NCBI GenBank assembly: GCA_963783575.1
Contig: CAWAOD010000005.1
Location: 128,001 to 192,000 of the forward strand
Length of the DNA stretch: 64,000 nucleotides
Direction: 5' to 3'
Origin: an uncultured Spirochaetota bacterium
Lineage (GTDB): Bacteria; Spirochaetota; Brevinematia; Brevinematales; JAOACQ01
Below the pieces are notes generated by a model. The model worked only from the letters and a program-made list of their open reading frames with translations, searched no databases and was not told the origin of the DNA. Positions 15,172 through 58,668 of the stretch are shown here, one piece after another. Both the position numbers and the translations under genes were made by a program. Positions within the stretch are counted from its first letter, which is position 1. Each line of letters opens with the position of its first letter.

Positions 15172-15244
15172 TCCCCTGTAGCTCAGTTGGCAGAGCAGGT
15201 GACTGTTAATCACCGGGCCGTAGGTTCGAGCCCTACCGGGGGAG
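15172..15244 (+). tRNA. tRNA-Asn (GUU)
   Basis: TCCCCTG/CGGGGGA acceptor stem, CTGTTAA anticodon loop, GGTTCGAGCC T-arm; CCA not encoded. Confidence 0.97.
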
Positions 15245-15251
15245 AATTTGT

Positions 15252-15283
15252 AAAAGGGACTGTATAAAAAACAGTCCCTTTTT
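15252..15283. terminator. Bidirectional Rho-independent terminator
   Basis: AAAAGGGACTGT-ATAAAAA-ACAGTCCCTTTTT. Confidence 0.9.
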
Positions 15284-15342
15284 GTTCTTTGAAAGAAAGA
15301 ATTTACTGATTAACCGTTAGGTAAATAGCATTATTCAGTCAT

Positions 15343-15699
15343 TTACAAATCTCTGATTCTGATTTTAGATGGGGTAATAACAACAAACTTGTTATAGAGG
15401 GATTGATTGTATTGAGATATAACCTTAATTAAATTTTTTAAAATCTGTTGCAAGTCTTCATTTACATAACGGATGAAAATGACCCCAACGTTTTTATACT
15501 GGTGAGAAAACACCAGTTCTCCAAAATCGCTGTCTTCTGTTAGCAGTATAGCGTTATTCTTTCGTGCTAATTCGATTACCTTCTCATCAGAGATTCCCGG
15601 TTGTGATTCCATAACGGATAAAACGCTTACTTGGAATTCTCTTAATTGTCTGATAATACGGAAATCAACATTTTCGTCTGCTAGAAAATTAAGAGGCAA
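15343..15699 (-). CDS. DUF5615 (VapC45-like) PIN-domain toxin
   Basis: FLADENV...DEKVI...LLTEDSDFG PIN-like motifs; coupled to the DUF433 gene. Confidence 0.85.
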   Translation of the reverse strand: MPLNFLADENVDFRIIRQLREFQVSVLSVMESQPGISDEKVIELARKNNAILLTEDSDFGELVFSHQYKNVGVIFIRYVNEDLQQILKNLIKVISQYNQSLYNKFVVITPSKIRIRDL

Positions 15700-15913
15700 G
15701 CATTTCCTCCTTACCGATCACATCAGCGGAATAGGAAAGAACAGCATAGATATCTTCAGCCTTGATATTCGGATAAGCTTCCAGCAATTCTTCAATTGAC
15801 ATTCCTTCCGATAGTTTTCTGAGTAACAGCTCAACCGTGATACGTGTTCCTTTTACAATCGGTTTTCCCATCATAATTTCCGGGTTTATTTCCAGCCGTT
15901 CTCTGTAATTCAT
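15689..15913 (-). CDS. DUF433 (VapB45-like) antitoxin
   Basis: INPEIMMGKPIVKGTRITV...EELLEAYP signature. Confidence 0.9.
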   Translation of the reverse strand: MNYRERLEINPEIMMGKPIVKGTRITVELLLRKLSEGMSIEELLEAYPNIKAEDIYAVLSYSADVIGKEEMLAS

Positions 15914-16066
15914 ATTATTACCTCTTTTATACTCATTAAAATATGTTCTTGCCTCATTATTATATTATTTTTTATGGGAAAAAAGCAAAAATTGGGGTTC
16001 TAAAGAATAATTCTATATGCTTTTTGGAAGTAGAAGAAAAATCCACAATTTGAACGCTTTAATGGG

Positions 16067-16214
16067 ATGACGAATACAGCGGCGCATCATTTAGCGGCAT
16101 CGATTGAGGGAGGAGGTTGATTTTAGTATGTCCTTTAGCTATCCGTTTCATTTCAAGTCTTACTCCATCCCACAAAAGCACGCTTTGAGACACCAACCGG
16201 GGGAGATTTTGTAA
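16067..16214. repeat. att-like dispersed repeat copy 1, ending in the tRNA-Asn 3' sequence
   Basis: ACCGGGGGAGATTTTGTAA (from 16196) matches ACCGGGGGAGAATTTGTAA (from 15235) at 18/19. The preceding ~130 bp is homologous to 19505-19634. Confidence 0.85.
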
Positions 16215-16574
16215 TGGCGCATGGCTGGAAAAGCTGTGCGCTTTTTTTTATTGTGAGCTCTCGTAGAGCTGTTTTAACGGCTTATAGGCGGTTTGAAAGT
16301 CCAGAATTTTTCATCCTTTACGCTAACAAAATGAATCGTAAGTCACTATAATCGCCAAAAGGTATTGCCTATCCGAAGGATATTCAAAGTGTTAATCATT
16401 GAAAACCTTTTTTCTTTTTCCCATAGCTAAATTATAATTTTTCCAATCGATAAATTGACCACAGTAAAAACAGGTAATATAATATCTAAAACTTATTATA
16501 AAGAAAATATATATTGCTTTGTTATATGCAAAAATTTAACGGGTTATATATTTCTGAATAAATGGAGTATTAGT

Positions 16575-18212
16575 ATGCATAGAATCTTTATTTTTTCAGG
16601 TGTTATTTTGATTAATTTTATAATTTGCGCCGGATTATTATTTCCTATGGATTCTGGTAACTCATCAATAAAAATGTATAATGATGCCAATAACGCCTAC
16701 TCTTTTTTCTATCCATCCGTTTGGGACTTTAAAGAAGATAAAGATGGACAAAGTTTGGCTTTTAAAAACGAAACTGGGGATAATGCAAGTATCCAGATTT
16801 CTATATTTAATGGAGAAAGTTATTCGTCTTCCTCCGGTAAATGGGGTGTCTTTACCTATCAATATAACAGTAAAAATAAAATATGGAAAATAACTTCCCC
16901 CTCAGATAGTGGGAAAGGTTCTAATGTTCAGGAAATCCAAACTATGCTGACAAAAGGCGGCCTGCCTTACACGGTGGAGGACCGGCAGAATATACATACT
17001 TTTATTTTTGCTCTTCGCCCGGGAATTTACGTGATCGCAGTAACGTTGAACTTTTATCCTGAAACCCAAAGAATAATTTTTATCGATGGTATAATACTTT
17101 CTTCCCTGGCTTCCGACAGGCTGAAAGAAATCATGAGGGAGCTTTCAGACGGTCTTGGCGGTATTTATCAACAAAACATTAATTCAAGAACCAAAGAAGA
17201 AGTGGAAGCATCAAAGAAGAAAAACGTTGTGGATTATTTCCTGCTTTGCACGGATATTATTCCATATTCCAATTTCAATACACCGGTTGAACTACCGTAT
17301 GCGGTACGATCCACATATCCCTATTGGACAAACTTGAATTATAATGAGTTGAAGGAGTCGATTGACAAAGGTTTTAATTTTAGGAAGAGCTTGCTTTCCA
17401 TGTATTTAGATACGGCATCCCCTTCAGGACTTATAATGGATAAAAGAGAAATAGATATTCAGAATGGATATATTTCTATGAAGGGACATAATAAAAACAG
17501 CGATTTTTTAATTAAATTCGTTTATTTTATTAAATCAGACGGAACATGCATTCCCGCATTTTATTATACACACAATGCGCTTGAGGAGCATATCTCGTGT
17601 TATACTTTTTATGAGGGAAAAAGGATCATGAAAAACGAGGAAATTATTTCCGGTTCTCCCTTTGATTTTTATAAAAAGAAGTTCAAGGAACTGGAGAAAT
17701 ACAGTGAAACCAACGTATATTGGTCAATTGAGCTGCCGAGATATGGAACGACAGCCAGCTTATTCATGGGACTTGAGACCGCTGAAATGGCCATAGAAAT
17801 AGCAGAAATTAATAATAATTTGGACATTAAACTTGGGAAATTGCCGCTTGACTTGGTTTGGGATCAGTCAAAGGGAAGGTTTGACCCAAGATATAGTAAA
17901 AACTGGAATGATCCCTCAAATTTTGTATTACTGCCAGGTGATTTCTGGGCTGCAGTGTTTGAAGACGACATGAATTATATTGATTCATATGTGAAAAAAG
18001 GCGGTAATATCAATATCAAGCATTCTATATATGGTTTTACGCCATTGACATGGGCAGCTTCATATGGCCATGAAGAATTGGTGAAATTTCTGATAAAATC
18101 GGGAGCCGGCCCTCAAATCAAGGACGGTGATGGCAAGACTGCTCTTGATAAAGCAAAAACGAATCATCATGATGATATTGTCAAAATACTGGAAGATGCC
18201 GAGGCAAGGTAA
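16575..18212 (+). CDS. Exported protein with C-terminal ankyrin repeats
   Basis: Signal-like N-terminus from ATG 16575 (GGAG RBS); GFTPLTWAASYGHEELVKFLI, GKTALDKA. Confidence 0.75.
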   Translation: MHRIFIFSGVILINFIICAGLLFPMDSGNSSIKMYNDANNAYSFFYPSVWDFKEDKDGQSLAFKNETGDNASIQISIFNGESYSSSSGKWGVFTYQYNSKNKIWKITSPSDSGKGSNVQEIQTMLTKGGLPYTVEDRQNIHTFIFALRPGIYVIAVTLNFYPETQRIIFIDGIILSSLASDRLKEIMRELSDGLGGIYQQNINSRTKEEVEASKKKNVVDYFLLCTDIIPYSNFNTPVELPYAVRSTYPYWTNLNYNELKESIDKGFNFRKSLLSMYLDTASPSGLIMDKREIDIQNGYISMKGHNKNSDFLIKFVYFIKSDGTCIPAFYYTHNALEEHISCYTFYEGKRIMKNEEIISGSPFDFYKKKFKELEKYSETNVYWSIELPRYGTTASLFMGLETAEMAIEIAEINNNLDIKLGKLPLDLVWDQSKGRFDPRYSKNWNDPSNFVLLPGDFWAAVFEDDMNYIDSYVKKGGNINIKHSIYGFTPLTWAASYGHEELVKFLIKSGAGPQIKDGDGKTALDKAKTNHHDDIVKILEDAEAR

Positions 18213-18455
18213 GTTTTTAGAAAAAGCTGTAATAAAATAATAGTTAATTAACATTTTATATATGGCTATTGGAATTATGGTGAAATCATTTTGATAATTA
18301 TCAGGTATAGCCTTTAATATAACTAAAACTAAAATAAAAATTGTTATAGAAGGTTACCAGATTTATTGTGTCAATAAACTTTCCTTCAAACCATTTTTTT
18401 ATATAATGTTTTAACAGAAGTACTATTTTTCCTATTAACAAATCAGAGGTAAAAA

Positions 18456-19283
18456 ATGCGAATCATATTATCAATAGTACTTATTATTTTCGGTTTTTTT
18501 CTTGGTGCAGTTTGTTATTATTATGCCCTGCAAATAAAAACAGGTCTTGTTCATCGGGAAAAATACTCCAGATTTATTGTAGAATCAGGGCGTATACTTC
18601 CGGACATCATCTATACGAATGCTGAAGGAACAGAAAAAAAGGCGCACCTTGATTCTGGAAGTTATAGCCAGTTTAAGCCGGGAGACCAGATTTTTTTCTA
18701 TTTGTACCCTAAGAATCCGGAATTTGCCACTCCTGATAACTTTCTGAATCTTTATTTTCTGCAACTGCTGGGAGGAATTTTTTCAGTACTGGTAATCATT
18801 ATCGGCATTTTTGTTCTTTCAGGAAAGTTATCTCTGATGGGAGCCACCTTTTCAGCATTAGCAGCTCTTATAATCGCCCTGTGGGGTTTTGGAATCCTGA
18901 AAGGAGAATTTATTTTACAAACAAAAGGAACTCTTATAACCGGGAAAGTTGTTGATATTAATAGTAAGAAGGAGTATACCTATACACATACAACTGGTAA
19001 TAATTTAGTAGATAGAAAGAAAGGATGGACTCGATATCTTAAGTTTCAATATTATGGACCGCAAAATCAACTTCTTCAGGTAACAATTGCAGATCAGGAC
19101 AAAGATTACAAAGTTGGTGATGAAATCCCTCTGGTAGCCGATTTTTCTTCGCGTCCAATAGTTGCGATTCATGACTGGAAGAGTTTTATTACGGGACTTT
19201 TCCTGGTTTCGCTTTTCTCTATTATGTTTACAGCTGCGGCAGTTATTTTTTGGTTTGTGTTTATTGGAAAAATCAGACCATAG
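18456..19283 (+). CDS. Membrane protein with two DUF3592-like repeats
   Basis: TM-beta-TM unit twice (FKPGDQIFFYLYPKNP; YKVGDEIPLVADF). Confidence 0.6.
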   Translation: MRIILSIVLIIFGFFLGAVCYYYALQIKTGLVHREKYSRFIVESGRILPDIIYTNAEGTEKKAHLDSGSYSQFKPGDQIFFYLYPKNPEFATPDNFLNLYFLQLLGGIFSVLVIIIGIFVLSGKLSLMGATFSALAALIIALWGFGILKGEFILQTKGTLITGKVVDINSKKEYTYTHTTGNNLVDRKKGWTRYLKFQYYGPQNQLLQVTIADQDKDYKVGDEIPLVADFSSRPIVAIHDWKSFITGLFLVSLFSIMFTAAAVIFWFVFIGKIRP

Positions 19284-19447: not shown

Positions 19448-19504
19448 ATCTACTTATATTTTAAAACGGCATTAAACTTTCGGCAAACTAAGTAACTGTC
19501 CTAT

Positions 19505-19647
19505 GTTGATGAATACAGCGGCACATCATTCATGGTTATCGATTCTGGAAGAAGGCTTATTTTGGTATGGCCTTTTGCTATGCATTTCATTTCGAGCTTT
19601 AGTCCGTTCCATAAAAGCACGCTTTGAGACACCAACCGGGGGAGAAT
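19505..19647. repeat. att-like dispersed repeat copy 2
   Basis: ACCGGGGGAGAAT at 19635-19647 is identical to 15235-15247 (tRNA-Asn 3' end); arm homologous to copy 1. Confidence 0.85.
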
Positions 19648-19859
19648 GGTTGGTGTTTGGGAGTATATACCGGATAACGACTTAAGAGATAGCCCTATAT
19701 CGGGTTGACGCCTGTATAAGACTATTTTTATGCTGTAAGAGCCAGTTATGACCTTGTAAAAGACAAGCCTTAAAGTTCATTCCGTAGATTTTTTTTAAGA
19801 AGCTGATGTAGTTTGTGTGACAAATTTAGGTTATAGACATTAAAGCAGTCTTTCCATAT

Positions 19860-22074: not shown

Positions 22075-22130
22075 ATGAACTGCTTAAACGGGCTGATGAA
22101 TAAAGCGGCGCATCAGTTAACGGTTTCAAT
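22075..22130. repeat. Partial copy of the att-like repeat arm
   Basis: GATGAATAAAGCGGCGCATCAGTTAACGG resembles GACGAATACAGCGGCGCATCATTTAGCGG of copy 1. Confidence 0.65.
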
Positions 22131-22452
22131 TTTCCGGCGAACGCAGGCCTGTGCTCTGCAGCTTTTTGAACGCGTCGTCGATCATTTTAAGCCTGTTGTT
22201 GACTTTTTTAACGGAAATTTCAAGGGTATATCCCTCATCCAGCAATTCCTTGATTAGCAGCATTTTTTTTATAGTCTGATAATCGTAACGCCTTGTCTTA
22301 GTCTGGGCATTTAGGGAAGTGATATATCCCTTTGATTCCCAGTACCTTATCTGCCTCTGGGGAATGCCTGTAATTTCAGATACTTCGCCAATTCCTATAA
22401 TCAGCCTGCTTAATAAATCGATATCCGCTTTTTCTATTTTATTCTCTTCCAT
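22126..22452 (-). CDS. MerR-family transcriptional regulator
   Basis: IGIGEVSEITGIPQRQIRYWESKG HTH. Confidence 0.88.
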   Translation of the reverse strand: MEENKIEKADIDLLSRLIIGIGEVSEITGIPQRQIRYWESKGYITSLNAQTKTRRYDYQTIKKMLLIKELLDEGYTLEISVKKVNNRLKMIDDAFKKLQSTGLRSPEN

Positions 22453-27181: not shown

Positions 27182-28218
<1,037 letters not shown>

Positions 28219-31931: not shown

Positions 31932-32751
31932 AATAAAATTTCCTCCTAACTCAGGTGTTGCTAATTCATTAATTAATATTAATAATCCCGTTTTAAGATG
32001 TCAAGGGGAATGGTATTTTCAACAAGCATGCCGCTTGACCTTAAAGACACAAAAGGCTTTATTACTTTTTGGCAAAAAGGAATCAAAAGCTTTATTACTT
32101 TCTTTCCTGAATTCGCCAGGAAAGAAAGTAATCAAAGAAAGGAGCGACCCCTTCGTATGGGCACCATTTCTGCAACATCGTGTTGCTGCCGAACTAGCGT
32201 TCGGCTATCTTCATAGTCTATGAAAAGTTCTATTGAACATCCTGTTCTCAAGGTAAGTAAATAATAGATTATTTATTAAGGGGGAATGATATATTAAATA
32301 AAAGCTTTTAGAATTTAGGTGTTGTTATTCGAGATAATTTGTTAAAGCTGTCTTTTAGTAACCGCCTTGTCGCAGTCCCTCCGTGGACTGACTCCTCGGC
32401 TGAAGCCATCCCTGGCTTCAGTATAATAATACAATCGATTATTTTTCAGGAATAACAACGATTGTTATATTGGGTTCTCTTTTAATCATACAAAAGTTCA
32501 ATCAGAAATGGCGCTCATACTGCGGGGGGCAAGGAAGGAACGCCGGAATGAATACACTAGCTTAATATTTTAATAAGTCTGAGTAAGAAAGGAACAGCCA
32601 GAATAAAATAACCGATTCTTTCATCATAAAACAAAGGAATTTGATACTTTATTTTTAAATTATGTTTGGACGGCTGTTCTATATAACTATGGATGAAATG
32701 TACACAAATATTATAAGTTTTTGTAAATACAATAAAACCTAAAATTGTAGA

Positions 32752-34350
32752 TTATTTTTTGGCCATTAATTTTTCATTATTAATTCTTTTTTTGACATCA
32801 TCCTGATTAAAATCCGGTGGAGTTGGTTTAAAGCCTGTTTTATCCTCTAATTGGTAATCCTGCGTTTTTAATTGATAATCTCTTAATTCACTAATATCGA
32901 TTTCTTCAACAAGTAAAACATTATTACTCCCACCTTTGATTTGAAGAATATTTTTCCCCTCAGTTTTAAAAGGTTTTGTAATTCTAGAATCACCAAATTG
33001 AGAAGTATTGGATTGTAAAAAATAGCAATGGAGGTCTCTACTAGTTGCTTCTACAATATTTGAATAATAACTTGTATCTTTATTCCATTCTGAAGCAAAT
33101 ACTAAATCAATTTTTGATTTGAAAATACTTCGATGTACTATATCTGCAAGCTCAAAGCAATAATATATTGAAAAATAAATATTATGCCAATTTATTAAAT
33201 GATATAAATAATTTTTTTCATCAGGTATGGTAAAATGATATCCAGAAATCATTTTCTTTTCTGATGGAGAGTAATGATTCTTTATTCTAAATATAGGTAA
33301 AATATCTTTTCGTCCGTTTATTTTTATGGGAATAAAGCAAATAAGTATATTATAAATTGTATCATTTACTTTAATATGTTCTGATCCTATAATTATCATA
33401 ATTTCATTTATTGCTGAATTTCTTGCCACATCATAGATGTGATCCAAAGACAGACAACTTTCTGGGAAAAGAATTGTATCACAATGTTGTTCATGTGCCG
33501 ATTTTAAAATTTCAACTACTTTATCATAACTACTATGCTTTGAAATTCCTGATTTAATATTTTCTTCAATTTCATTTTCTTCAATCTTAATATTAGCAAT
33601 TCCAACTTTTATTTTATTTTTTTTGTTACTATATATATGAATTTCTAAAATATTAATTTTAGAAATAAATGTAGAATTCTCATTGTATATTTTTTCCTTT
33701 AAATCTTCATAATATTTTTTATCAATAATATTATCGATTTCTTTTTTATTAATATTTGAATAATCTGAGATATTATTATAATTTATCTTATTGTTTGATA
33801 GAAAATAGCACCTTAAAGAATCATCTAAAAAATTATTTTCTTCATAAATACCTTTGTTATCTCTTATTTTTCCTGAGAATAATTTTTCATAAAATTTCCA
33901 AGTAATGATTTCATATAATTTTATATTACGCGGAGAAAAAACTAATGAAAATAGATTAATTTTTGTTTTTTCTTTAATTAGTTCATCATAACTTTTATCA
34001 TAAGAAAAACCTTTATATTTAACAGCATCAAGAAAACCTAGGATTGGTTTCCTTAAAAATTGATATCTAATAAGATTGGAATGTGCAAATATAGATATAT
34101 AATTATTAATTTCATGAATATCAAATTCCCAATTTCCTCCATATTTTATGTAAGTATGGACAAAGTTTTCATTAGCTATAATTTCAAATTTAGTCCTATT
34201 TCTTTGTATAAAGTTATAATTAAGTGAAGTTGCCATTTCAAGGCTTAATATTAAATGTTCAAAAAGAGCGAAATAAATTTTATCACTAATATCTATATTA
34301 TCTGCTTTAATTATTGGAATTTCTTTACAGATTTTTTCAAAATTCTCCAA
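32752..34350 (-). CDS. C-terminal half of an RT-nitrilase protein: helical region plus carbon-nitrogen hydrolase domain
   Basis: Glu-Lys-Cys triad contexts LFPESCL, RIKNHYSPSE, YYCFELAD; NTSQFGDSRI. The frame stays open upstream into the RT ORF (YYQLWEKLFTFFVI). Confidence 0.88.
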   Translation of the reverse strand: MENFEKICKEIPIIKADNIDISDKIYFALFEHLILSLEMATSLNYNFIQRNRTKFEIIANENFVHTYIKYGGNWEFDIHEINNYISIFAHSNLIRYQFLRKPILGFLDAVKYKGFSYDKSYDELIKEKTKINLFSLVFSPRNIKLYEIITWKFYEKLFSGKIRDNKGIYEENNFLDDSLRCYFLSNNKINYNNISDYSNINKKEIDNIIDKKYYEDLKEKIYNENSTFISKINILEIHIYSNKKNKIKVGIANIKIEENEIEENIKSGISKHSSYDKVVEILKSAHEQHCDTILFPESCLSLDHIYDVARNSAINEIMIIIGSEHIKVNDTIYNILICFIPIKINGRKDILPIFRIKNHYSPSEKKMISGYHFTIPDEKNYLYHLINWHNIYFSIYYCFELADIVHRSIFKSKIDLVFASEWNKDTSYYSNIVEATSRDLHCYFLQSNTSQFGDSRITKPFKTEGKNILQIKGGSNNVLLVEEIDISELRDYQLKTQDYQLEDKTGFKPTPPDFNQDDVKKRINNEKLMAKK

Positions 34351-34373
34351 AAAATATTTATCATTATCCGTAA

Positions 34374-35846
34374 TTACAAAAAATGTAAATAATTTTTCCC
34401 ATAATTGATAATAAAAATAATATTCATTCCTATAAAAAATGATGTTAATAATTTTGCCTCTTTCAAACTATCTTTTCCTGGATTATTCTTATAATACTCT
34501 ATTTTTTTAGCCAGGTAAATTGATAGTCCGTATCGTGTTTCTTTGAAATCCTTAAGTGTTTTTAATTTTCCTTTACTGTCATCAAAAATAAATTCATACA
34601 TAGCATTATCTGAATCAATTTCCTCATTTTTGTTATCTGGTAATGATCTAAATTCACTACTGCTTTTTAATAATTCTTCTTTAAACTTATTAATTACTGT
34701 TGAGGGACCATACCTATCAAAATAAAAAACTTGTATTTTTTCTGTTTGTAAAAACAAGTTGTTTTTTTTAATTTTTATTAAGCCCTTATTATTTGGATCA
34801 TCCTCAAATATTTTATCAAACCTCTCATTGATATAATTTTGTAAATTTATATTATCTTTTATATAATCAGTTATTACTAATGATAAGTCATCAACATATC
34901 TTCCATAATAAATTGGTTTTATATTTTCAATTAAATCTTGATCAAAGTCTTTAAGGTACCAGTTACATAAAATACTAGATGACATCAAACCAATTGGTAA
35001 AAAAATTTTTTTGTCATTAACAATATGAGGTTTAAAATCAGTATTAAATTTATATTGATATACTTCATGAGTTTTTATAAAAATTTGTACCAAGGTATTT
35101 AAAACTTTATCTTTTTCGTCATATTTTAGAATATTGACATGCAAGTCATTTAAATCTAATCTTATACTGTGATAACAATCCTTAATATCTAAATTAACAA
35201 TTGAAATGCTATTACCTTTTTCATGTAGATCTTTTGCTTTATTAATGCAATTATCTCTCCATTTTTGATATTGTTTAATATATGGAATAAATAAAGGCCC
35301 GTCATATTTTATGTTTTTACTAGTTGTTAATAATAACCTATTACCATAAACACAATCATTAAAGTCTTTTTCAAGTTTGAACCCTATTTTTAAAATCCAA
35401 AGCACATTTAATATATGAATTTCAATTGGAGCATCAATAAAATATACTTCTTTCTTAATTTTATAATTATTCGTGTTTTTAATGTTATAAGTAATATTAT
35501 TATTTGTCTCTTCATTATTTTCTGTTTCATTAATATCATTATTTTTCATGAATGATTTTGGCAATAGGAATATTCTGATATCACGAAACAATTCATCAAA
35601 GTACGTTAAATTATTATTAATTAAATTTTCATATAAACTTTTTAATCTATGAATTAGAATTGGTTCATTAGTTTTAACCATTTTTCTATTTAAAAATGTC
35701 ATAAATGCTCTTCTAAACAAACTAAAAGAATCTCCTGATTCAAATATTGCCATTCTTTTTCTCAATACTAAATTAGTATTGTCATAATATACTTCCTGCT
35801 TTAGTTTTTTATATGCTATCATTAAATCAGATAATTCAATTGACAT
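34374..35846 (-). CDS. UG/Abi class-3 (DRT1-like) reverse transcriptase, N-terminal half of the RT-nitrilase fusion
   Basis: AYKKLK, DAPIEIHILNVLWI, YGNRL, QYQKWRD, LDIKDCYHSI, LPIGLMSSSILCNWYL, catalytic YYGRYVDD; AGGAG RBS before ATG. Confidence 0.9.
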   Translation of the reverse strand: MSIELSDLMIAYKKLKQEVYYDNTNLVLRKRMAIFESGDSFSLFRRAFMTFLNRKMVKTNEPILIHRLKSLYENLINNNLTYFDELFRDIRIFLLPKSFMKNNDINETENNEETNNNITYNIKNTNNYKIKKEVYFIDAPIEIHILNVLWILKIGFKLEKDFNDCVYGNRLLLTTSKNIKYDGPLFIPYIKQYQKWRDNCINKAKDLHEKGNSISIVNLDIKDCYHSIRLDLNDLHVNILKYDEKDKVLNTLVQIFIKTHEVYQYKFNTDFKPHIVNDKKIFLPIGLMSSSILCNWYLKDFDQDLIENIKPIYYGRYVDDLSLVITDYIKDNINLQNYINERFDKIFEDDPNNKGLIKIKKNNLFLQTEKIQVFYFDRYGPSTVINKFKEELLKSSSEFRSLPDNKNEEIDSDNAMYEFIFDDSKGKLKTLKDFKETRYGLSIYLAKKIEYYKNNPGKDSLKEAKLLTSFFIGMNIIFIINYGKNYLHFL

Positions 35847-36191: not shown

Positions 36192-37745
36192 ATGGTGAAA
36201 AATATTATGTATCAGGACATAAAAAAACTGAAACTTTTGGGGAAAAGTAAAAATGGTGTATCCCGGGAACTGTCAATAGATATTAAGACAGTCCGAAAAT
36301 ATTGGGCTATGAACGATTCCGAATACCAGAAAAGCCTGATGGAATTCTCTTTCCGTGAAAAAGAATTCGAAGGAATAAAAACAGACATATTGAAAGTATA
36401 TGAAAAGAATGATTACATCCGGCTGAATATGTCTGCTGTGTATGACTATTTATTGGAGGTAAAAGGCAAACTACCGGCGAATGAAAATACGATGAGGAAT
36501 TTCGTACATTACCTGATTGAAAGCGGGCAGCTTACCTTGAATGAAAAGCGCCGGTATTACACAAAAGTGCCTGACATGCCATATGGAAAGCAGCTCCAGC
36601 TTGATTTCGGTCAATATACCGACAGATATGGCAGAAGGTATTACATATTTGCCGCGGTGTTATCCGCCAGTCGTTTTAAGTATGCGGCCCTCCAGGAGAG
36701 GCCATTCCGGACAGAAGACCTGATCAATCATCTGTTGGACTGTTTCGCATATATGGGCGGGATACCGCATGAACTTGTCATCGATCAGGACTGCACGATG
36801 GTTGCGAGTGAGAACTCAGGCGATATCATCTACACGAAAGACTTTCAGTATTTCATCGGGGAAATGGGTCTTAAAATGTATGTGTGCCGACCTGCTGACC
36901 CGGAAAGTAAGGGAAAGATTGAAAACGTAGTCAAATTCATCAAGCACGGTTTCTTCTCAGTCCGGGAGTTCAACAGTTTAATGGAAGCGGAAGAAAGCCT
37001 GATGAAATGGCTGGAAAGAAAAGCCAACGGGAGAATATCCCAGGCTACAATGAAAATACCGCTGATAGAGATTGAAACGGAAAGACCATATCTCCAATCT
37101 GTCAGGAATTCGATATTCCGTAAAGACAGGATAGGAGCAAGGGAAGAGCGCAGTGTAAGCGATAAATGCCGGATCGCAGTTGATGCAAGCCAGTATGATA
37201 TTCCCGAAAAATACAGGAACGGTTCGGTGGACATCTACAAGACGGGCAGTCGGCTTTTTGTCTTTGACAGGATAACGGGAGAGCAAATCGCCGAATACCG
37301 GCTTTCAGTGATTCCGGGGCAGATTGTAACCAACAGGGCAATGATCCGGGAAATGGGAAAGACTGTGCAGTTATTGAAAGAAGAAGTAAGCGGGTACTTT
37401 GATATTCCCGGCTGGAAGGATTTTCTTGAATGTAATTTCAGGAAGTTCAATCGTTATGTAAGGGACCAATGTCTTTCCGGAAGAAAATACTTCAGGGACA
37501 AGATAATTGATACCGGGAAGCTTACACAAGCGATCTCAAACTGCCTGGAGAGTGATAGTTATTCCATGAAGGATTTGTGGGATAATTACCTGAACTGTTT
37601 TATAACAGAAAAGGCAGAAATACCCTTGAATGTTGAAAAGATTGTCAGGCCTTCAGTGAATCCTGAACACTATCTTGAAGTAGCTAAATCAGACATCGGG
37701 AAATACCAGAGTTTCTGTGACTCCATCGGGGGCCGGCAATGTTGA
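36192..37745 (+). CDS. istA: IS21 transposase
   Basis: N-terminal HTH, QLDFG, GGIPHELVIDQ, PESKGKIE. Confidence 0.93.
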   Translation: MVKNIMYQDIKKLKLLGKSKNGVSRELSIDIKTVRKYWAMNDSEYQKSLMEFSFREKEFEGIKTDILKVYEKNDYIRLNMSAVYDYLLEVKGKLPANENTMRNFVHYLIESGQLTLNEKRRYYTKVPDMPYGKQLQLDFGQYTDRYGRRYYIFAAVLSASRFKYAALQERPFRTEDLINHLLDCFAYMGGIPHELVIDQDCTMVASENSGDIIYTKDFQYFIGEMGLKMYVCRPADPESKGKIENVVKFIKHGFFSVREFNSLMEAEESLMKWLERKANGRISQATMKIPLIEIETERPYLQSVRNSIFRKDRIGAREERSVSDKCRIAVDASQYDIPEKYRNGSVDIYKTGSRLFVFDRITGEQIAEYRLSVIPGQIVTNRAMIREMGKTVQLLKEEVSGYFDIPGWKDFLECNFRKFNRYVRDQCLSGRKYFRDKIIDTGKLTQAISNCLESDSYSMKDLWDNYLNCFITEKAEIPLNVEKIVRPSVNPEHYLEVAKSDIGKYQSFCDSIGGRQC

Positions 37746-38488
37746 AGATAAGAGAACAAATCATAACTGCGCTTACAACTCTCGGGTTGAAGGGTATGAT
37801 AAAACGGATTGATGAGGAAATTGGTGAGGCTGAAAAGGCAAAAGAGTCTTATCTGAGTTTTCTGCAGAGGCTGCTTTCTCTGGAATTGAATTATAGAGTG
37901 GAAAAACGTTTTCAGCGGAATATGGCAGGAGCACACTTCCCGGTCCGCAAAGATGTGGAAGGTTTTAATTTTGAAAAAGTGAATGGAATATCTAAAATGG
38001 ATGTTTCACAGCTATTGGATTTCTGCTGGATTGATAATCATCATAACCTGTTGTTCTTTGGGTCTCCGGGGCTGGGGAAAACGCATCTGGCAATTAGTAT
38101 CGGAATCCGGGCAGTTGAAAAGGGATATATTGTCTGCTTTGAAAGGATGACTACTCTCATTAAGTTTCTGAAAACGGCGGACATCCAGAGAAGCTCTGCT
38201 TTCAGGCTGAACCGGATGATGAAGTCACACTTATTAATCATTGATGAGATAGGTTACACACCTATCGAAAAGAAGGAGGCAAATCTATTCTTTAGTCTTG
38301 TAAGTGAATTGTATGAAAAGACATCAATTGTGATAACATCGAATAAGGGATTTCAGGATTGGGCTGAAATGATGGGAGACCCGATTATGACAACAGCTCT
38401 TCTGGACAGGCTTTTACATCATTCAAATATTTATAACTTGAGCGGAGAATCTTACAGAATACAAAATTTGAATAAGGAGGTTGAGTAA
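37739..38488 (+). CDS. istB: IS21 ATPase helper
   Basis: GSPGLGKTHLA Walker A, LLIIDEIGY, LLDRLLH, GESYR. Confidence 0.95.
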   Translation: MLKIREQIITALTTLGLKGMIKRIDEEIGEAEKAKESYLSFLQRLLSLELNYRVEKRFQRNMAGAHFPVRKDVEGFNFEKVNGISKMDVSQLLDFCWIDNHHNLLFFGSPGLGKTHLAISIGIRAVEKGYIVCFERMTTLIKFLKTADIQRSSAFRLNRMMKSHLLIIDEIGYTPIEKKEANLFFSLVSELYEKTSIVITSNKGFQDWAEMMGDPIMTTALLDRLLHHSNIYNLSGESYRIQNLNKEVE

Positions 38489-42082: not shown

Positions 42083-43235
42083 ATGGACATTTTTAAAGAG
42101 ACATCGATCGCCGGGATCAAATTGAAAAACCGGATCATCCGGTCGGCAACCCATGAATACTTTAATAAACCAGTACCGGAATTGAAGGAAATTTATACCA
42201 GACTTGCTCTTGGCGGAGCCGGAGCCATAATTACGGGTTTGACTGGAATTGACCCGGAACAGATTGGGTTTCCAAAGATGCCATTGTTATACAATAAGGA
42301 AGAACGTAATGAATGGAAGAGTTTTTTGAAGGATCTTGCGCCGTACAAAACCCCAATTATCCTGCAACTGACCCATAGCGGGGGAAAATCGATAGGAAAA
42401 AATGGAAAATCACCTTCTCCTTATAAGTATTATTTTAAGGAAAGTGATGAGATCACGCAGGAACAGATAAAAAAGGTAATAAATGATTTTGCGATCTTCG
42501 ATCGAATTGGCAAAATCGGCCGGTTTTGACGGCGTCCAGATACAGGCTTCACACGGTTATCTGTTATCCGAATTCCTTTCTCCGCGATTGAACCGGAGGA
42601 CAGATGACTGGGGCGGAAACACTGAAAATCGCTTCAGGATCATCAGGGAAATTATTTCAGAATCCAGGAAAAGGGTCGGCGATTTTCCCTTACTTGTAAA
42701 AATTTCCGCTTATGATACGGATGAAGGAGGTATGAGGATAGAAGAATCGATAAAGATCGCAAAATTGCTGGAAGAGGCAGGATGCGATGCCTTAGAAATT
42801 TCATGCGGTAACCTCAACGGATTCGATACAATAAGATCTGAAAAACCGCCGGTCGAAATGATTTTAAATCTTCCCAATTACAGAAACCTTCCTCCTGAAA
42901 AAAAACAATTTGCCGCAATCGAAATTAATAAAAATTTTATTCAGCACGAGAGATCGAAAATTATAATGTCGAAGCCGCATCAGAAATTAAATCGTCCGTT
43001 TCCATGCCGGTCATTGTAGTGGGCGGAATCCGAAAACTTGATAAAATAAATGAAATTATTAGTATCAGGAAAAGCAGATTTCGTTTCAATGTCCAGGCCT
43101 TTCATCATTGAACCGGATATCGTCAACAGATTTAAAAACGGACAAAATAAATCATCCTGTATAAATTGCGCCTACTGCTCGCCTGGTTTAGCCGACAAAC
43201 TGAAATGTTCATATGGAAAGTTTGTGCCTGATTAA
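42083..43235 (+). pseudogene. NADH:flavin oxidoreductase (old yellow enzyme family) split by three frameshifts
   Basis: LKNRIIRSAT, AGFDGVQIQASHGYLLSEFLSP, NRRTDDWGG, VVGGIR, SRPFIIEPD, CINCAYC in different frames; breaks may be sequencing errors. Confidence 0.8.
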
Positions 43236-43606
43236 AAAGATGGGCTGCATAATGAAAAGGATACAATTCTGCATATATAAATCGAAAAGTAAAGCTTTTA
43301 TATGGCATCCTTGCCAATAAGTTACCTTTATTAAGCTGATCCCTGCACAAGAACAGCCGGCCAGGCTTTTTATAGAATTGAAGAAAATATTCTTTTAGTT
43401 AGTCAATCCACTATGTTAATCATAAAACTGTGCAGTTTCGTCTTGCCCGGACATATACTTATCGAAACTGCAAAATGCCGGGTTTGCTTTCAATTACGCT
43501 TTCCCCGGCATTAAATCGGTTATTTTATTCCGGCTGTTCATCTTTTACAAGGCTTTTGTAACGGCGGCAAAGGTTACATTTGATAATAGCTGAATAACTT
43601 AGTGGA

Positions 43607-43725: not shown

Positions 43726-45112
43726 CTATTTTATTAAAAAGCTGTTTTTAACCTTCGTACTAATTCCGAGTTCCTTCATTTTCTTATATAAATCCTGCCG
43801 GTGAAGCCCTATCTGGCTTCCTGTCCGGGTTATATTGAAATTGTTCTGTTTCAGGTAATATATGATGAATTCCTTCTCAAATTTTGAAGATATGATTTTC
43901 TTCGCCTGCGTTATATTGGCAGGCAATGTTTTGAAATCATAATCCTCTCCGGCGGCCGTTTCATTGTCATCCCCGGTTGATCCCTTATTTTCATTTTGCA
44001 GGTCGCCGGTTTCAATCCATTCCCTTTTGCTGAAAATAACCGATTTTTCAACTGTATTTCTTAGTTCCCTGATATTTCCGGGCCATTCGTATTCCTGAAA
44101 ATAATCAAGCAATTTTTCATCAAAGCCGATGATATTTTTTTCATATTTTTTCGAAAAATCTTTCAGGAATACCTGTGCAAGCGGTTTGATTTCATCTTTT
44201 CTTTCTCGCAGTGGCGGGATGTGAATTCTTATAAGATTCAAACGGTAAAGCAAATCTTCGCGGAATTTATTATTTTCGACCTCATTTTCGATATTTTTAT
44301 TGGTAGCGGAAATAACCCTCGTTTTGATTTTGACGGGAAGACTGCCGCCGACCCTGGTAATTTCATTTTCCTGCAGGACCCTGAGGAATTTTGCCTGCAG
44401 ATCCACAGGCATTTCGGCGATTTCATCGAGAAAAATGCTTCCTTTATCGGCCGATTCAAAAAAACCGATTTTTCTTTCGCTTGCCCCGGTATATGATCCT
44501 TTCTCAGCGCCGAAAAGGGCGCTTTCTATAAGGTTTTCGGGAATGGCGGAACAGTTTACGGGAACAAAATTCCCGGTTCTTTCGGAATACTTGCTGGATC
44601 ATCTTCGCTATTACTTCTTTTCCTGTTCCGGATTCCCCTGTTAACAAAACCGGAACATCTGTTTTTGAAATGGTTTTTACCTTTTCAATTATCGAATTCA
44701 TTACGGATGAAAAAAAATAGCCGTCCTGTGGTATTGTGATCCCTGATTTTAAAATAAAACTTTCTTTGATATGGCTGACGCGGTTTAACAATTCGTCATT
44801 ATCAAAAGGTTTTTTTACATAATCATAGGCTCCGTTTTTTATCGCTGTAATCGCCAGGTTTTCATTGCCGAAGGCGGTTATGAATATGACCTGGGTCAGT
44901 GGATATTGCCGTTTAATTATTGAAAGAAGCTCAAGCCCGTTCCTGCCCTTGAGCTGGTAATCAAGGATGATTATTTCAAAAAAGTCCTTTTTTATAATTG
45001 CAAGGCATTCCTCGAACGAGTTCGCGAAGACCGTATCATAGCCGTTATGCTTCAACAATGATGAAAGCGCGATGCACAATGCCTTTTCATCATCCACTAT
45101 AAGTATTTTCAT
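43726..45112 (-). CDS. Sigma54-dependent response regulator (NtrC/AtoC type), frameshifted near 44590
   Basis: ILIVDDE receiver, [21 protein letters not shown] (GAFTGA variant), [16 protein letters not shown]-terminal HTH. Confidence 0.88.
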
Positions 45113-46475
45113 TTTTTGCTTCACCTTTATAAAAAGATAGTTTGAATACGGTCTTATTCCTGGTGCTTCCGACAAGTTCAATATTTCCCATATGGTCGTT
45201 CATTATTTCCTTGCACACGGAAAGTCCCATGCCGGTACCGTTGTTTTTCGTGGTCCAGAACGCATCGAAAATTTTATCCTTGTCGCGGAAATCTATCCCG
45301 GTGCCGTTATCCTCTATGAAAATATTAACAAATCCAACGGTTTCATCGGAATAAACCGTGATGGTTGTGCAATCAGCTTCTATCGCATTATAAAGCAGGT
45401 TCAGGAAAATCTGGCGGACCTGGTAATTATTAAAATTTACCGTTGTATTCTTCAGCGGCTCGCTCAAAACCAGCCTTATGTTTCTCTTCTCAAAGTCGAA
45501 CATCAGCAATGTTTCAAGCGAGAGGAGCAATTGATGAACACCTATCCGGGAGACATCCTGCTTTTCATCCTTCCTGTAGGTTTTCAAAAACGATTCCGAG
45601 AGTTTTTTTATTTTCCCAAGCTCGTCTGATGTAATCTCTAGGAACTGCCTGACCTCATTTTCCTGCATTATTGAAAATCTGTCAAGCAATTGCTGGTTGA
45701 AGGATTGGATTGCAGTGACCGGGTTCTTTATTTCATGGATGAGGCTGCTAGTAAGTTTCTCAATGATCGTCTTTTTTTCATATATCTGAGTTTTTTTCAG
45801 CGTGTCAAGGTTAATGTAGTATTCATAATCCGATTCAAGCATATTTTTTTTGTAGGAAAGATAAAGTGTGAGTACCGACGCCAAAGCGAGAGAAATAGGC
45901 AAAGTGTCAAGCAGTAACATTTTGTTTTTTATAGTAAAAATAAGGTTAATGAAAACATAGGGGCTGACAGCAACTATTATTATAAAAACGAGCGGCAAAT
46001 CTTTTTTTGATTTTGCTTTTTTCCCGTCCGGTTTCACAACATAGTAGGCGAGAAGAGCAGACCAGAAGATAAGATGATAAATTACTCTGAAAAGAAGGTA
46101 CCCTTTAATAAATACCTGTCTCATAATTGTAAGGTCAATGATGAGTGAAAAAACCGGCACCAGTAATATGGTAAGGTATATTAATTTTAAAGTGTTCTTT
46201 TTATTCACGATTATATAAATGAAAGCAAAAGATGGAATGAAAAAATGGATTTTTTGGGAAAGATCAATATAGGAAAAGGCAGAGTTTTGTAAAATGCCCT
46301 GAGTGTTGTTATTGAGAGTATAAAAAAACACATAAAGAAAAACGGCGAACCAAAGCAATGCATAAATCCTTGTGGAAATAACCCTGGTTCCCATCAGGAA
46401 TATTGTTATCGAGGTGATGAAAATTATACCGCATGAAAAAATGTTTATGAATGCAATTATACTCACGTTATCCAT
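45090..46475 (-). CDS. Membrane sensor histidine kinase
   Basis: Multi-TM N-terminus; HEIKNP, NLLYNA, DNGTG, GTGMGL. Confidence 0.92.
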   Translation of the reverse strand: MDNVSIIAFINIFSCGIIFITSITIFLMGTRVISTRIYALLWFAVFLYVFFYTLNNNTQGILQNSAFSYIDLSQKIHFFIPSFAFIYIIVNKKNTLKLIYLTILLVPVFSLIIDLTIMRQVFIKGYLLFRVIYHLIFWSALLAYYVVKPDGKKAKSKKDLPLVFIIIVAVSPYVFINLIFTIKNKMLLLDTLPISLALASVLTLYLSYKKNMLESDYEYYINLDTLKKTQIYEKKTIIEKLTSSLIHEIKNPVTAIQSFNQQLLDRFSIMQENEVRQFLEITSDELGKIKKLSESFLKTYRKDEKQDVSRIGVHQLLLSLETLLMFDFEKRNIRLVLSEPLKNTTVNFNNYQVRQIFLNLLYNAIEADCTTITVYSDETVGFVNIFIEDNGTGIDFRDKDKIFDAFWTTKNNGTGMGLSVCKEIMNDHMGNIELVGSTRNKTVFKLSFYKGEAKNENTYSG

Positions 46476-51420: not shown

Positions 51421-51439
51421 GAAATAAGCTTAAAGCTTG

Positions 51440-51517
51440 ATCATTTCAAGCCTTACTCCGTTCCACAAAAGCACGCTTTGAGAGAGCAATCCGTGGAGAT
51501 TTCCGTAAGACGCATGG
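51440..51517. repeat. att-like dispersed repeat copy 3
   Basis: TCATTTCAAGCCTTACTCCGTTCCACAAAAGCACGCTTTGAGA...ATCCGTGGAGATT...CGCATGG matches copy 1. Confidence 0.8.
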
Positions 51518-52481: not shown

Positions 52482-52523
52482 TACCAAAAGACTAGAATAT
52501 TGCACAATAAACTGTGATAATTA

Positions 52524-55656: not shown

Positions 55657-55742
55657 AGACTTTTGCAGTTATCAGGGGATCGGGCGAATGATAAGTTATA
55701 AATATATTGAATTCAGGTTAAAAAATAAAGGAGGTTATTAAT

Positions 55743-56171
55743 ATGTTAAAAAAAGAAATGGTAATTCTATTGCTGTTTAGCGTATTTATTGAAGCAGGAT
55801 GTTCCAAACAAAATGCCGGGGACATAAAGGCTATCCGGAAAACAGTGCAGGATTATTGCGAAGGATTTCAGACTGGTGATGCCGACAGGATGGCTAAATC
55901 AGTGCATCAGAATTTGGCGAAAAGAATGGTAAGCAGCCCGGAACAAGACAGTGTATTGAACGAATTAAACAAAGATCAAATGATTGAAATAACAAAATCC
56001 ATAGGAAAAGGCGCAAAAATAAAATATGAGATGAAAATACTGGACATAGATGGTAACATTGCTTCGGTAAAAACCAAAGGCCGTTTCATCGATTATTTAC
56101 ATTTGGCAAAATTTAATAATGAATGGGTTATCATAAATGTACTTTGGGAAAATCATACTAATAAAATGTAA
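55743..56171 (+). CDS. NTF2-like (lumazine-binding family) lipoprotein
   Basis: EAGC lipobox; DYCEG...IASVK...DYLHLAKFNNEWVIINVLW. Confidence 0.8.
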   Translation: MLKKEMVILLLFSVFIEAGCSKQNAGDIKAIRKTVQDYCEGFQTGDADRMAKSVHQNLAKRMVSSPEQDSVLNELNKDQMIEITKSIGKGAKIKYEMKILDIDGNIASVKTKGRFIDYLHLAKFNNEWVIINVLWENHTNKM

Positions 56172-56177
56172 ACAGCA

Positions 56178-56279
56178 AGGGAGAAGGTAGATCTTGATAT
56201 GGCTTTTATCTATTCGCTTTATTCAAGCTTTACTCTGTCCCACAAAGGCAAACTTTTAGATACCACCCCGGGGAGATTA
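56178..56279. repeat. att-like dispersed repeat copy 4 (degenerate)
   Basis: TCAAGCTTTACTCTGTCCCACAAAGGCAAACTTTTAGATACCACCCCGGGGAGATT aligns with copy 1. Confidence 0.75.
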
Positions 56280-56439
56280 ATGTTGGCTTACAAATCCATA
56301 CTTGAAAGAACTGCTTAATCTTCGAAAAAAAGTTGCTTTGATCAATATAATCCAGCCATATAGTAGTTTCAATTATCTGTTGTAAAATCATTTCTCATAC
56401 CTTGATCGAATGTTATTTTAAAAAATATTTTTATACATC

Positions 56440-56500
56440 TTGACAAATCCATTTTTTTATTTTATATTAAACATTGCTTATAACATTGTTTAAAACATTG
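56440..56500 (+). promoter_or_regulatory. Promoter and probable operator of the TetR-family operon
   Basis: TTGACA-17 bp-TATATT followed by AACATTG three times at exact 12-bp spacing (56470, 56482, 56494). Confidence 0.65.
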
Positions 56501-56517
56501 ATTTGAAAGGAGATTTT

Positions 56518-57135
56518 ATGAAAAGAAACTTGGATAAATCTACCAGGGAACATATCCTGAAAAAAACAATGGATTTGCTTTTCAGCACTATGCCGGAAAA
56601 ATTGACTTCAAGGGGTATCTCGGAAGCATCCGGCGTTAATGTAGCAGCCATTAATTATTATTTTCAGAGTAAAGATAAACTGGTTGATGAAGCGGTTGAG
56701 ACTGGAACGGAGATTGCCTTCAGAAAGGGAATGGAAATACTCATGACGGAAGGTAATGATCCCAGAAAAAGACTTTCCGATTTCCTGACCGGTTATGCGC
56801 ATGGGTCGATGGAATATCCCAGACTCACCCGGGCAGCTTTTAATAACCTCTTTTTAAAGGAAGCTGAAAGCAATCCTTTCGGCCGCTATAGTAAAGAAAT
56901 GATTGAAAATATCGGAAAGGTTATAGGAGAAGCATCAGGATCAACCGATCAGGAAAAAAATAAAAACAAGGCATTAATGATGGTTGGAAGTGTCATTTTC
57001 CCATTTTTGATCCCCAAAACATTGCTGGAATCGGGGATAATTGATTATGGAAACGCTGAAAAACGGAATATATATATTGACGATATGATAGATTTATTAA
57101 TGGAAAATTATATTAAGGAGACGGGTCATGCCTAA
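56518..57135 (+). CDS. TetR/AcrR-family regulator
   Basis: TSRGISEASGVNVAAINYYFQSKDKL HTH. Confidence 0.9.
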   Translation: MKRNLDKSTREHILKKTMDLLFSTMPEKLTSRGISEASGVNVAAINYYFQSKDKLVDEAVETGTEIAFRKGMEILMTEGNDPRKRLSDFLTGYAHGSMEYPRLTRAAFNNLFLKEAESNPFGRYSKEMIENIGKVIGEASGSTDQEKNKNKALMMVGSVIFPFLIPKTLLESGIIDYGNAEKRNIYIDDMIDLLMENYIKETGHA

Positions 57136-58609
57136 AAAAATTATTATTATTGGAGCAGGTATCGCCGGACTATCAGCGGGTTGCTACGCCAGAATGAATG
57201 GTTATGAAACGGAAACCTTTGAGATGCATACATTGCCCGGCGGTGTTTGTACCGGCTGGAGAAGGAATGGATATACCTTCGATGGCTGTATGCACTGGTT
57301 AATCGGATCATCAACCGAAAATCCTTACCACCGTATATGGGAAGAGCTTGGGGCCCTGGAGGGAAAGAAAATAACCAACCATGAAGAATTCTGCCGGATG
57401 GTTCTAAGGGACGGGCATGTACTTTCGCAGTATGGAAATATTCCACAGCTGATCAACCATCTGAAGGCGGAGTTTCCTGAAGATTCCGGGGAGCTCGATG
57501 CGATGGAGAAGGATATATTATTATTCTGTGAGCTCAGAATGCCGCTGGGATCGGCAAAACCCATGAGTTTATGGAAGAAAATTAAAGGATTCTCAAAGAT
57601 TAAACCTTATCTTCCTCTTTTTAAAAAGTACTCCTGTAATATTGAAACCTTTGTTCGGAAATTTAATAATCCTGACCTTCGGGAATTTATACTCGCCATT
57701 ATACCGATGCCGGATTTTCCAGCAACTTCACTGCTCGGAATAATGTCTGTTTTGCATAAAAAGGAAGCAGGATGGCCTGAAGGAGGTTCTCTTGAGTTCG
57801 CGAAATCTATCGAGAAACGATACACAGACTTGGGAGGAACAATCCATTACGGATACCGGGTTAATGAAATAATTGTAAACCGCGGAAGAGCTACGGGAAT
57901 AAGGCTGGCTGATGGAAGCGTACATTTTGCCGATGATGTGATTGGAGCCGCCGACGGCCATTCCACAATCTTCGGTATGCTACATGGAAAATATGTTAAC
58001 GGCAGGATCAGGAAAGATTACGAAACCATGCCGCTTTATGATCCGATAGTCCAGGTATCCTTCGGGGTCAAAAAAAATATCGATCTTCCAAGGCTGACCT
58101 TTTATTGTTTCCAGGAGGGCGTTAAATTTGGTAGTACCAATGTTGGGTGGCTTTGGCTGAATAATTACGGCTTTGACCCGGCTATGGCCCCGGCAGGGAA
58201 GTGTCCTCTCACTGTGATTTTTATGAGTCCATTCGACATATGGGAAAAATTAAATGATAATAAAGATGCTTACCTCGAGGAGAAAAACAGGGTACTTGCA
58301 GAAATTACAACCTGGCTGGAATCCAGAATCCCGGGAATAACCGATGCCATTGAGGTAACAGATGTCGCGACGCCATTGACAACCGTGCGTTATACCGCGA
58401 ATTACCGCGGTTCTTTTGAGGGATGGCGGCCTACTGTTTGTACCATGCAGAAAAAACTCGCAAGAAAATTACCGGGTTTGAAAAACTTCACCATGATCGG
58501 ACAATGGACTGCCGGTTTTTCCGGACTTCCATCTGTTGCCAGGGACGGAAGAATTGTCATCGAGGAATTGTGTATCAGGGACGGAAAGGAATTTATGACA
58601 AGCATATAA
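57128..58609 (+). CDS. Phytoene-desaturase-family FAD-dependent oxidoreductase
   Basis: IIGAGIAGL, PGG...WRRNGYTFDG, DVATPLT, GQW. Confidence 0.88.
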   Translation: MPKKIIIIGAGIAGLSAGCYARMNGYETETFEMHTLPGGVCTGWRRNGYTFDGCMHWLIGSSTENPYHRIWEELGALEGKKITNHEEFCRMVLRDGHVLSQYGNIPQLINHLKAEFPEDSGELDAMEKDILLFCELRMPLGSAKPMSLWKKIKGFSKIKPYLPLFKKYSCNIETFVRKFNNPDLREFILAIIPMPDFPATSLLGIMSVLHKKEAGWPEGGSLEFAKSIEKRYTDLGGTIHYGYRVNEIIVNRGRATGIRLADGSVHFADDVIGAADGHSTIFGMLHGKYVNGRIRKDYETMPLYDPIVQVSFGVKKNIDLPRLTFYCFQEGVKFGSTNVGWLWLNNYGFDPAMAPAGKCPLTVIFMSPFDIWEKLNDNKDAYLEEKNRVLAEITTWLESRIPGITDAIEVTDVATPLTTVRYTANYRGSFEGWRPTVCTMQKKLARKLPGLKNFTMIGQWTAGFSGLPSVARDGRIVIEELCIRDGKEFMTSI

Positions 58610-58668
58610 CGGCTTCTCATTTAACGGTATCGTTTGAGGGAGGAGATTTATTCCGGTATGGTCTTTTT
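58600..58668. repeat. Partial copy of the att-like repeat arm
   Basis: Minus strand reads KDHTGINLLPQTIPLNEKPLY, versus KGHTKINLLPQSMPLNDAPLY in copy 1. Confidence 0.7.

Follow-up and report, generated by a model that had tools for sequence, protein, structure and literature searches.

A family of repeats beside a tRNA-Asn gene of an uncultured Spirochaetota bacterium is confirmed here, by comparison with related sequences, as the att scars of tRNA-targeting integrative elements that carry a large serine recombinase (LSR). The repeats lie in a stretch of 64,000 nucleotides (NCBI GenBank assembly GCA_963783575.1, contig CAWAOD010000005.1, positions 128,001 to 192,000), hereafter the window, and positions are counted from its first letter. 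As read from codon patterns, the arm of the att site encodes a C-terminal tail of about 46 amino acids that belongs to the LSR and is under purifying selection at the protein level. Junctions in relatives indicate that the elements recombine within the 3′ end of their own LSR gene and the 3′ ends of tRNA genes, chiefly, among the observed loci, tRNA-Asn; the LSR open reading frame (ORF) that crosses attP ends in the tail, and once integrated it ends in antisense tRNA sequence or at a stop, with the tail left at the far end of the element. By the same comparison, integration itself swaps the end of the gene. The reading that we prefer, with a probability of about one half, is that the tail fills the binding site for a recombination directionality factor (RDF) on the circle-encoded enzyme and favours integration, the integrated form being open to an RDF.

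The tRNA-Asn(GTT) gene that serves as target was placed by ARAGORN at 15171..15245 on the plus strand, and translation of its antisense 3′ end in the frame of the scars confirmed the reading LPR-stop given in an earlier note on this DNA. The repeats described there are real: blastn recovered six copies in the window, and a DNA profile made solely of 19 relatives' sequences recovered five of the six (E 5e-36 to 2e-6), missing the one at 22075-22131, with zero matches at E<=1 in the reversed genome used as control. Tail copies 1 (16062..16208, minus strand, 49 open codons, an attR-type junction) and 2 (19504..19647, minus strand, 48 open codons) carry the minus-strand peptides already written out for them and are 82% identical across 139 nt. 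The 13-mer ACCGGGGGAGAAT, recognized earlier as an exact tRNA-Asn 3′ core within copy 2, has only two sites in the 4.9-Mb genome, in the tRNA-Asn gene and in copy 2. The earlier note had also held that no integrase survives in the window, which proved incorrect, as an LSR 3′-end remnant of 43 codons lies at 19648..19776 on the minus strand, in frame with tail copy 2, so that the frame 19504-19776 holds 91 open codons. This remnant is 74% identical (46 residues counting LPR; E 1.6e-11) to residues 492-537 of P0073, a 537-aa LSR stopping at ILPR*, and that is the ending expected from this host's tRNA. P0073 is thereby a recombinase ORF ending in LPR-stop, of the kind that the note had proposed to look for, and it matches the window remnant. 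No intact recombinase was found beside the tRNA in the window; a profile of the clade LSR found one site only in the genome, at window 19621-19788, and there were no PF07508 (Recombinase) or PF00239 (Resolvase) matches in the genome, which is 89.85% complete.

Coding signal in the tail was evident from the window pair alone. Over 46 codons copies 1 and 2 differ by 10 synonymous codon changes, the same count as in the earlier note, and by 10 non-synonymous ones, and the differences fall 6/3/16 by codon position. The ratio of non-synonymous to synonymous substitution rates (dN/dS) is 0.18, not near 1, in the coding frame, as against 1.4-2.4 in four other frames and 0.24 in the mirror antisense frame, and this estimate is free of peptide-search bias because both copies were found as DNA. 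Among 25 distinct full-length tails, namely the 2 from the window and 23 picked from 71 fetched loci as ungapped and full length, the corresponding ratio pN/pS was 0.39 with the first 14 codons excluded; the coding signal is inflated for the relatives, which were located by peptide patterns, with the window pair exempt. An in-frame stop was present in 1 of the 25 tails in the coding frame and in 10 to 25 of them in the other frames. The tail peptide had zero Pfam family matches and zero matches to PDB sequences at E<=10, an ESM Atlas search with it returned nothing useful (recognition was low), and it was not matched in viral contigs.

The gene to which the tail belongs was identified from relatives. 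Matches to the tail peptide occurred in 2 of 40 relatives' genomes, at 7 loci in genome contigs with titles from several phyla and 64 metagenome loci, and in 38 of 50 phmmer matches; the other 12, long multi-stretch proteins, were excluded as repeat artefacts after inspecting 5. Six of 15 longer tail-bearing proteins have LSR domains, and at three loci (L024, L025 and L038) a complete LSR and the tail are fused in a single ORF, which is the junction of recombinase and peptide that the earlier note had foreseen. The L024 ORF and P0073 both have Resolvase, Recombinase and Zn-ribbon domains in order, passing all three Pfam cut-offs. In genome G043 an LSR 88% identical to that of L024 reads into tRNA-Asn and ends WLPRPDSNQRQGG* at the same tryptophan, a tRNA-terminated form, so that as far as sequence can tell both junction states exist in relatives, LSR with tail in L024 and LSR into tRNA-Asn in G043. 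The suggestion that the gene crossing attP was a recombinase or a repressor therefore stands for the recombinase, an LSR, and falls for the repressor. Among 120 homologs of the L024 LSR listed, with endings sorted by our own pattern classes, 56 end in tRNA-antisense-like sequence, 20 terminate no more than 4 codons from the junction and 9 carry this tail, and there were 6 with a DxFR-type tail, 22 with other extensions and 7 unclear. The proposed loss of about 45 aa on integration was thus right as to removal of the tail (about 46 aa), which is, on the other hand, often swapped for antisense-tRNA residues (56 versus 20 of the 120). At least 3 kb of downstream sequence was available at 30 of the 71 tail loci; a tRNA lies downstream on the opposite strand at 8 of the 71 (7 Asn, 1 Glu), and another tRNA geometry was seen at 3. 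Searches of 11 genomes of the same family gave no close LSR at E<=1e-20, and more distant LSRs occur in 23 of 401 phylum genomes.

Variants of the tail, and other kinds of ending in the same LSR clade, were also seen. Tails of L085, L076 and L087 start (W)RP, with L085 located 3 kb from a tRNA-Glu gene, and from L085 there may be a sister lineage targeting tRNA-Glu. Tails of the WLPxxDxFR type occur in P0081, P0082, P0094, P0097, P0109 and P0129, and long in-frame extensions with a helix-turn-helix-like (HTH-like) pattern in P0104, P0166, P0167, P0138, P0121 and P0176. Homology of the present tail to the longer hairpin and HTH extensions (P0104, P0166, P0167) was unsupported, with an hhalign probability of 0.3.

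The geometry of the att site links the tail to one LSR clade. In the window an attP-like imperfect palindrome occupies 19620..19665, with 18-bp arms (12/18) around a 10-nt spacer, and we infer a crossover at its symmetry centre, 19642-19643. With the same arms and spacer, palindromes were scored at 59 distinct junctions from 70 of the 71 loci. The 2 distinct junctions between tail and cognate LSR reached 14 and 15 of 18; scores were 3-6 where the LSR was foreign (5 junctions) and 2-9 at the other 52. Within the window the score was 12/18 for copy 2 and 8, 4, 5 and 4 for copies 1, 3 and 4 and the tRNA, respectively. Restriction of the palindrome to cognate junctions argues that the tail belongs to the L024-type LSR clade and that copy 2 is attP-like, and the low scores at other-LSR junctions argue that fusions to other LSRs are tandem junctions, in line with the 218 nt that loci L028 and L038 have in common at 98.6% identity, starting at the tail. 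L029 holds the integrated tail end of an element of which L025, from a contig of 16,702 nt, is a circular permutation (96-99.9% identity), and L024 is likewise circularly permuted against L029. L025 is a candidate circle; a tandem pair would yield the same junction, and 3.3 kb of the contig lies outside the comparison. The parent element, as seen in L024, carries an extracytoplasmic function (ECF)-sigma-like gene, a CHC2/Toprim primase and type III restriction-modification (R-M) cargo, and the loci together delineate what appears to be a clade of integrative elements of about 16-17 kb with LSR, ECF-sigma-like gene, CHC2/Toprim primase and variable cargo. The parent element also contains a 134-nt inverted repeat (72%; L025:486-619 and 8235-8368), one arm of which is just upstream of the LSR gene.

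Repeated integration of related elements at tRNA-Asn, as the earlier note supposed, is upheld by the LSR fusions, the G043 LSR running into tRNA-Asn, the 7 Asn-tRNA loci and the symmetry of the att site. An alternative explanation could be that the repeat has nothing to do with integration at tRNA-Asn and is either a dispersed element without coding function or part of some ordinary gene. Two copies on other contigs would fit with dispersal, but the coding pattern, the fusions in frame with LSRs, the placement of the tRNAs and the symmetry of the att site speak otherwise, and the peptide has no Pfam match. We consider this explanation refuted by the dN/dS, the LSR-into-tRNA state of G043 and the in-frame remnant matching P0073. 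It could also be that the tail has no regulatory role, in that an ORF merely needs an end past attP, with its conservation due to the DNA of the att arm and to ordinary constraint on structure. The first tail codons do overlap the att arm, several unrelated extension types exist within the clade, and a trivial reading of this sort was also offered for the dsiB gene of Dehalococcoides (McMurdie 2011, PMC3146451). Against it, third-position bias continues past the arm, as the pN/pS value shows, the tail family is found across divergent LSR homologs, and docking in the model described below is specific, and we regard it as improbable.

The structure of LSR with tail was modelled with AlphaFold2 (AF2) from a 74-sequence alignment, giving a mean predicted local distance difference test (pLDDT) of 87, and the best Foldseek matches of the model were serine integrase-att complexes (E 7e-21). 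In the model the coiled-coil helices within the second DNA-binding domain (DBD2) are at 373-421 and 427-461, and a disordered linker (518-540) is followed by the tail as a hairpin (544-569; strands 544-556 and 560-569) with pLDDT of about 82. When the tail was supplied as a separate chain against the LSR body the complex scored 0.68, with 0.00 for the best control; the mark adopted is one that 116 of 157 solved complexes attain, as do 2 of 215 mismatched pairs. Such a result locates the tail and not its effect, because halves of one chain folded with our own alignment tend to pass. Contact agreement in the complex runs was at least 72%, and the pLDDT of the partner was at least 64. In the predicted complex the tail pairs through 544-551 with the strand 503-511 and touches 353-390 and 455-469 at the base of the coiled coil; it would thus enlarge the DBD2 sheet by a beta-hairpin and pack against that base, where RDFs bind. 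RDFs have been predicted at the DBD2-coiled-coil junction, most of them adding a beta strand to the DBD2 sheet (PMC12286644), LSRs of SCCmec have extra C-terminal strands that could block the RDF site (PMC12286644), and the SPbeta RDF restrains the hinge at the DBD2-coiled-coil junction (PMC11722253).

A mechanism may be proposed from these predictions. Serine integrases normally owe their directionality to a separate RDF, and for many LSRs no RDF is known. Under the preferred reading, LSR made from the circle would carry the tail and have its RDF site filled in cis, which would set it for attP x attB recombination; integration would remove the tail from the LSR gene, leaving an enzyme that might be weak or dependent on a trans-acting RDF, and integration itself would flip the control of directionality. 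It is possible, at somewhat less than even odds, that a widespread clade of tRNA-targeting serine integrases steers direction by a recombination-switched tail, which would fill the RDF site only while the gene spans attP, and that an incoming element could rewrite the enzyme of a resident one, since tails land in frame on older tandem neighbours including unrelated LSR lineages (5 junctions).

Alternatively, the tail may switch activity without directionality, completing the DBD2 fold so that the enzyme of the integrated element, lacking the tail, would be weak or unstable. This would stabilize the element, much as in Mx8 and SSV, with full activity regained in the circular form or where two elements join in tandem. 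Pairing of the tail with the DBD2 edge strand in the model would suit this, as would the proposal of such a switch for dsiB (McMurdie 2011, PMC3146451) and the alteration of Mx8 IntP by integration (PMC6070905). Most recorded homologs nevertheless have no tail although they are of full length and contain each of the three Pfam domains, the integrated form must excise the element unless a neighbour supplies the tail, and the AF2 body is well folded to residue ~511, in a model that had the tail present; we regard this explanation as unlikely, if still deserving attention. A third possibility is that the tail is itself RDF-like and promotes excision or abolishes directionality, either as a fusion at tandem junctions or as a separate product of attR whose translation starts at a TTG or ATG near codon 3-4. 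The predicted docking site is the RDF site, engineered C-terminal integrase-RDF fusions are functional (PMC12286644), SCCmec LSRs with such strands have been discussed as lacking directionality (PMC12286644), and start positions of the MSQSV-like kind occur in some database proteins. On the circle, though, fusion to an RDF would work against integration, the attR DNA upstream of the tail varies by locus and so offers no shared promoter or ribosome site, and the short ORFs are gene-caller output, and we think an RDF-like tail distinctly unlikely.

Several observations weigh against the preferred reading of a tail that fills the RDF site and favours integration. The predicted docking site would also fit an RDF-like tail or plain completion of the fold, and the complex, as noted, gives location only. 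Part of the conservation would be at the DNA level because the first ~8 tail codons double as attP arm, and the inflated coding signal of the relatives counts here too. Only 2 distinct cognate junctions were scored, and the candidate circle has its tandem alternative. Extensions other than this tail are present in 28 of the 120 listed homologs. The window tails are probably relics, because no LSR was found in the genome at its stated completeness, and two further degenerate tail copies lie away from the tRNA-Asn gene on other contigs of this genome, at C14:50535-50650, with a clean internal deletion and a flank resembling that of copy 1, and at C9:709246-709317.

Location of attP inside an integrase gene is already known, from Mx8 and from dsiB. 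The Mx8 integrase is of the tyrosine class. The earlier note had drawn an analogy to mycobacteriophages with attP in the repressor gene, in which integration changes the C-terminus of a protein; the analogy holds for the change of C-terminus, but the split gene here is a recombinase with no repressor involved, and Mx8 IntP and DsiB are closer analogues. Mx8 and SSV integrases have been named as crossing attP (PMC4383910, PMC6070905), and in Mx8 IntP/Int, as here, attP lies in the integrase gene and integration makes a new 3′ end and alters the enzyme; Mx8, however, is a temperate phage, whereas the enzyme here is a serine integrase with the swapped part predicted at the DBD2/coiled-coil junction. 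In Dehalococcoides dsiB overlaps attL in tandem ssrA islands and function was proposed only on the circle or beside a neighbour (McMurdie 2011, PMC3146451), with attP within a serine integrase gene as in this LSR clade. DsiB targets ssrA with DsiA as partner, unlike this clade with its tRNA-Asn/Glu targets, and its C-termini are divergent, with no conserved tail, selection test or structural model described in the available portions of that paper. The comparison with DsiB is one of layout, and the L024 genes (sigma-like, primase, type III R-M) are not the dsiA, parB and mom module of the ssrA islands. SPbeta SprA/SprB, phiC31 and Bxb1 have the same domain order, fold and ~46-bp symmetric attP, and their RDF site is the predicted site of the tail (PMC11722253, PMC12286644), but their RDFs are separate proteins, unlike the tail. 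The extra C-terminal strands of SCCmec Ccr are fixed in the protein as described (PMC12286644), whereas here they would be added or removed by recombination. The word tRNA is not present in the main text of a large LSR survey (PMC10083194), there was nothing on such tails in the available portions of that survey or of PMC12884075, and no paper on this tail family was found in open-licence literature, supplements aside. What appears new is the family of tails itself, together with the signal of selection on it and the site at which it is predicted to dock.

The window as a whole reads as a decayed tandem pile-up of element ends, with one LSR|tail junction, at copy 2, and no intact LSR. A tRNA-Lys gene (15079-15151) precedes the tRNA-Asn gene. 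In order from the latter there are a terminator-like hairpin directly 3′ of it (15252..15282, plus strand; no LSR end at that place), a DUF5615/DUF433 gene pair, tail 1, a second terminator-like hairpin following the core of copy 1 (16216..16242, plus strand; flank like those of copy 3 and the C14 copy), 3.4 kb of cargo, tail 2 and the LSR remnant, and beyond these older cargo, insertion sequence (IS) elements and decayed tails to 58.7 kb. The four remaining tail copies, all on the minus strand, are shortened or frameshifted. Copy 3 (51430..51501; blastn with copy 1, E 5e-16) has a degenerate core and the first ~20 codons followed by unrelated sequence, copy 4 (56178..56279; E 6e-15) about two thirds of the tail with a frameshift, and two distal tail fragments lack the core (22075..22131, E 3e-6; 58600..58678, E 1e-5). 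The DUF433 and DUF5615 genes (15343..15913, minus strand; Pfam, blastn) are the cargo of module 1 and presumably toxin-antitoxin-like; a pair 76% identical follows tRNA-Asn in G002, from another genus of the family (L135/L137), and the tail was absent from the 12 kb after that pair. The two tRNA-proximal modules may be non-autonomous or fixed, since they are without an LSR end. Flanks after copies 1, 3 and C14 are alike (p 0.002-0.014 versus shuffles), and the tRNA's own flank shows no significant similarity to that of copy 1 (p 0.16). In relatives within the family, tRNA-Asn is likewise followed by hairpin-type flanks, and the post-tRNA flank recurs at the tail junction in 3 of the 8 loci that have a tRNA downstream on the opposite strand (L068, ~96 nt; L086, ~50 nt; L082, at least 70 nt), where, as in the window, the tRNA-proximal module begins with host-like flank and not an LSR end. 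Such repeated flanks could mean that the LSR end was replaced by empty-site flank or that attR-type circles were inserted; either fits.

Other features of the array and genome are recorded for completeness. At 32752-35846 (minus strand) a reverse transcriptase (RT) ORF (RVT_1, 490 aa) precedes a 532-aa ORF that matches no Pfam family; this may be a defence RT system, and an IS21-type pair adjoins it at 36192-38488; a 35-nt inverted repeat (89%; 32583-32617 and 43514-43548) flanks 10.9 kb holding the RT and IS21-type genes. Genes for an aldo-keto reductase, an NADH:flavin oxidoreductase and a sigma-54 response regulator are split or frameshifted (27212-28218, 42083-43019 and 43726-45181), consistent with decay of the island or sequence error. 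Elsewhere in this genome C5:3402-32380 and C15:6573-27747 hold five adjacent tyrosine recombinase gene pairs, two with identical scores, which we take to be possible RIT-like elements.

The window's own contribution is thus its scars and one remnant junction in a decayed array. A natural pair of enzymes differing only in a 46-aa tail, predicted to sit at the RDF site, makes the 2011 speculation about dsiB directly testable. There is also an implication for integrase mining, where a gene taken from the integrated state comes without its tail, and such enzymes, which target conserved tRNA ends in many phyla, could score weak or be missed.

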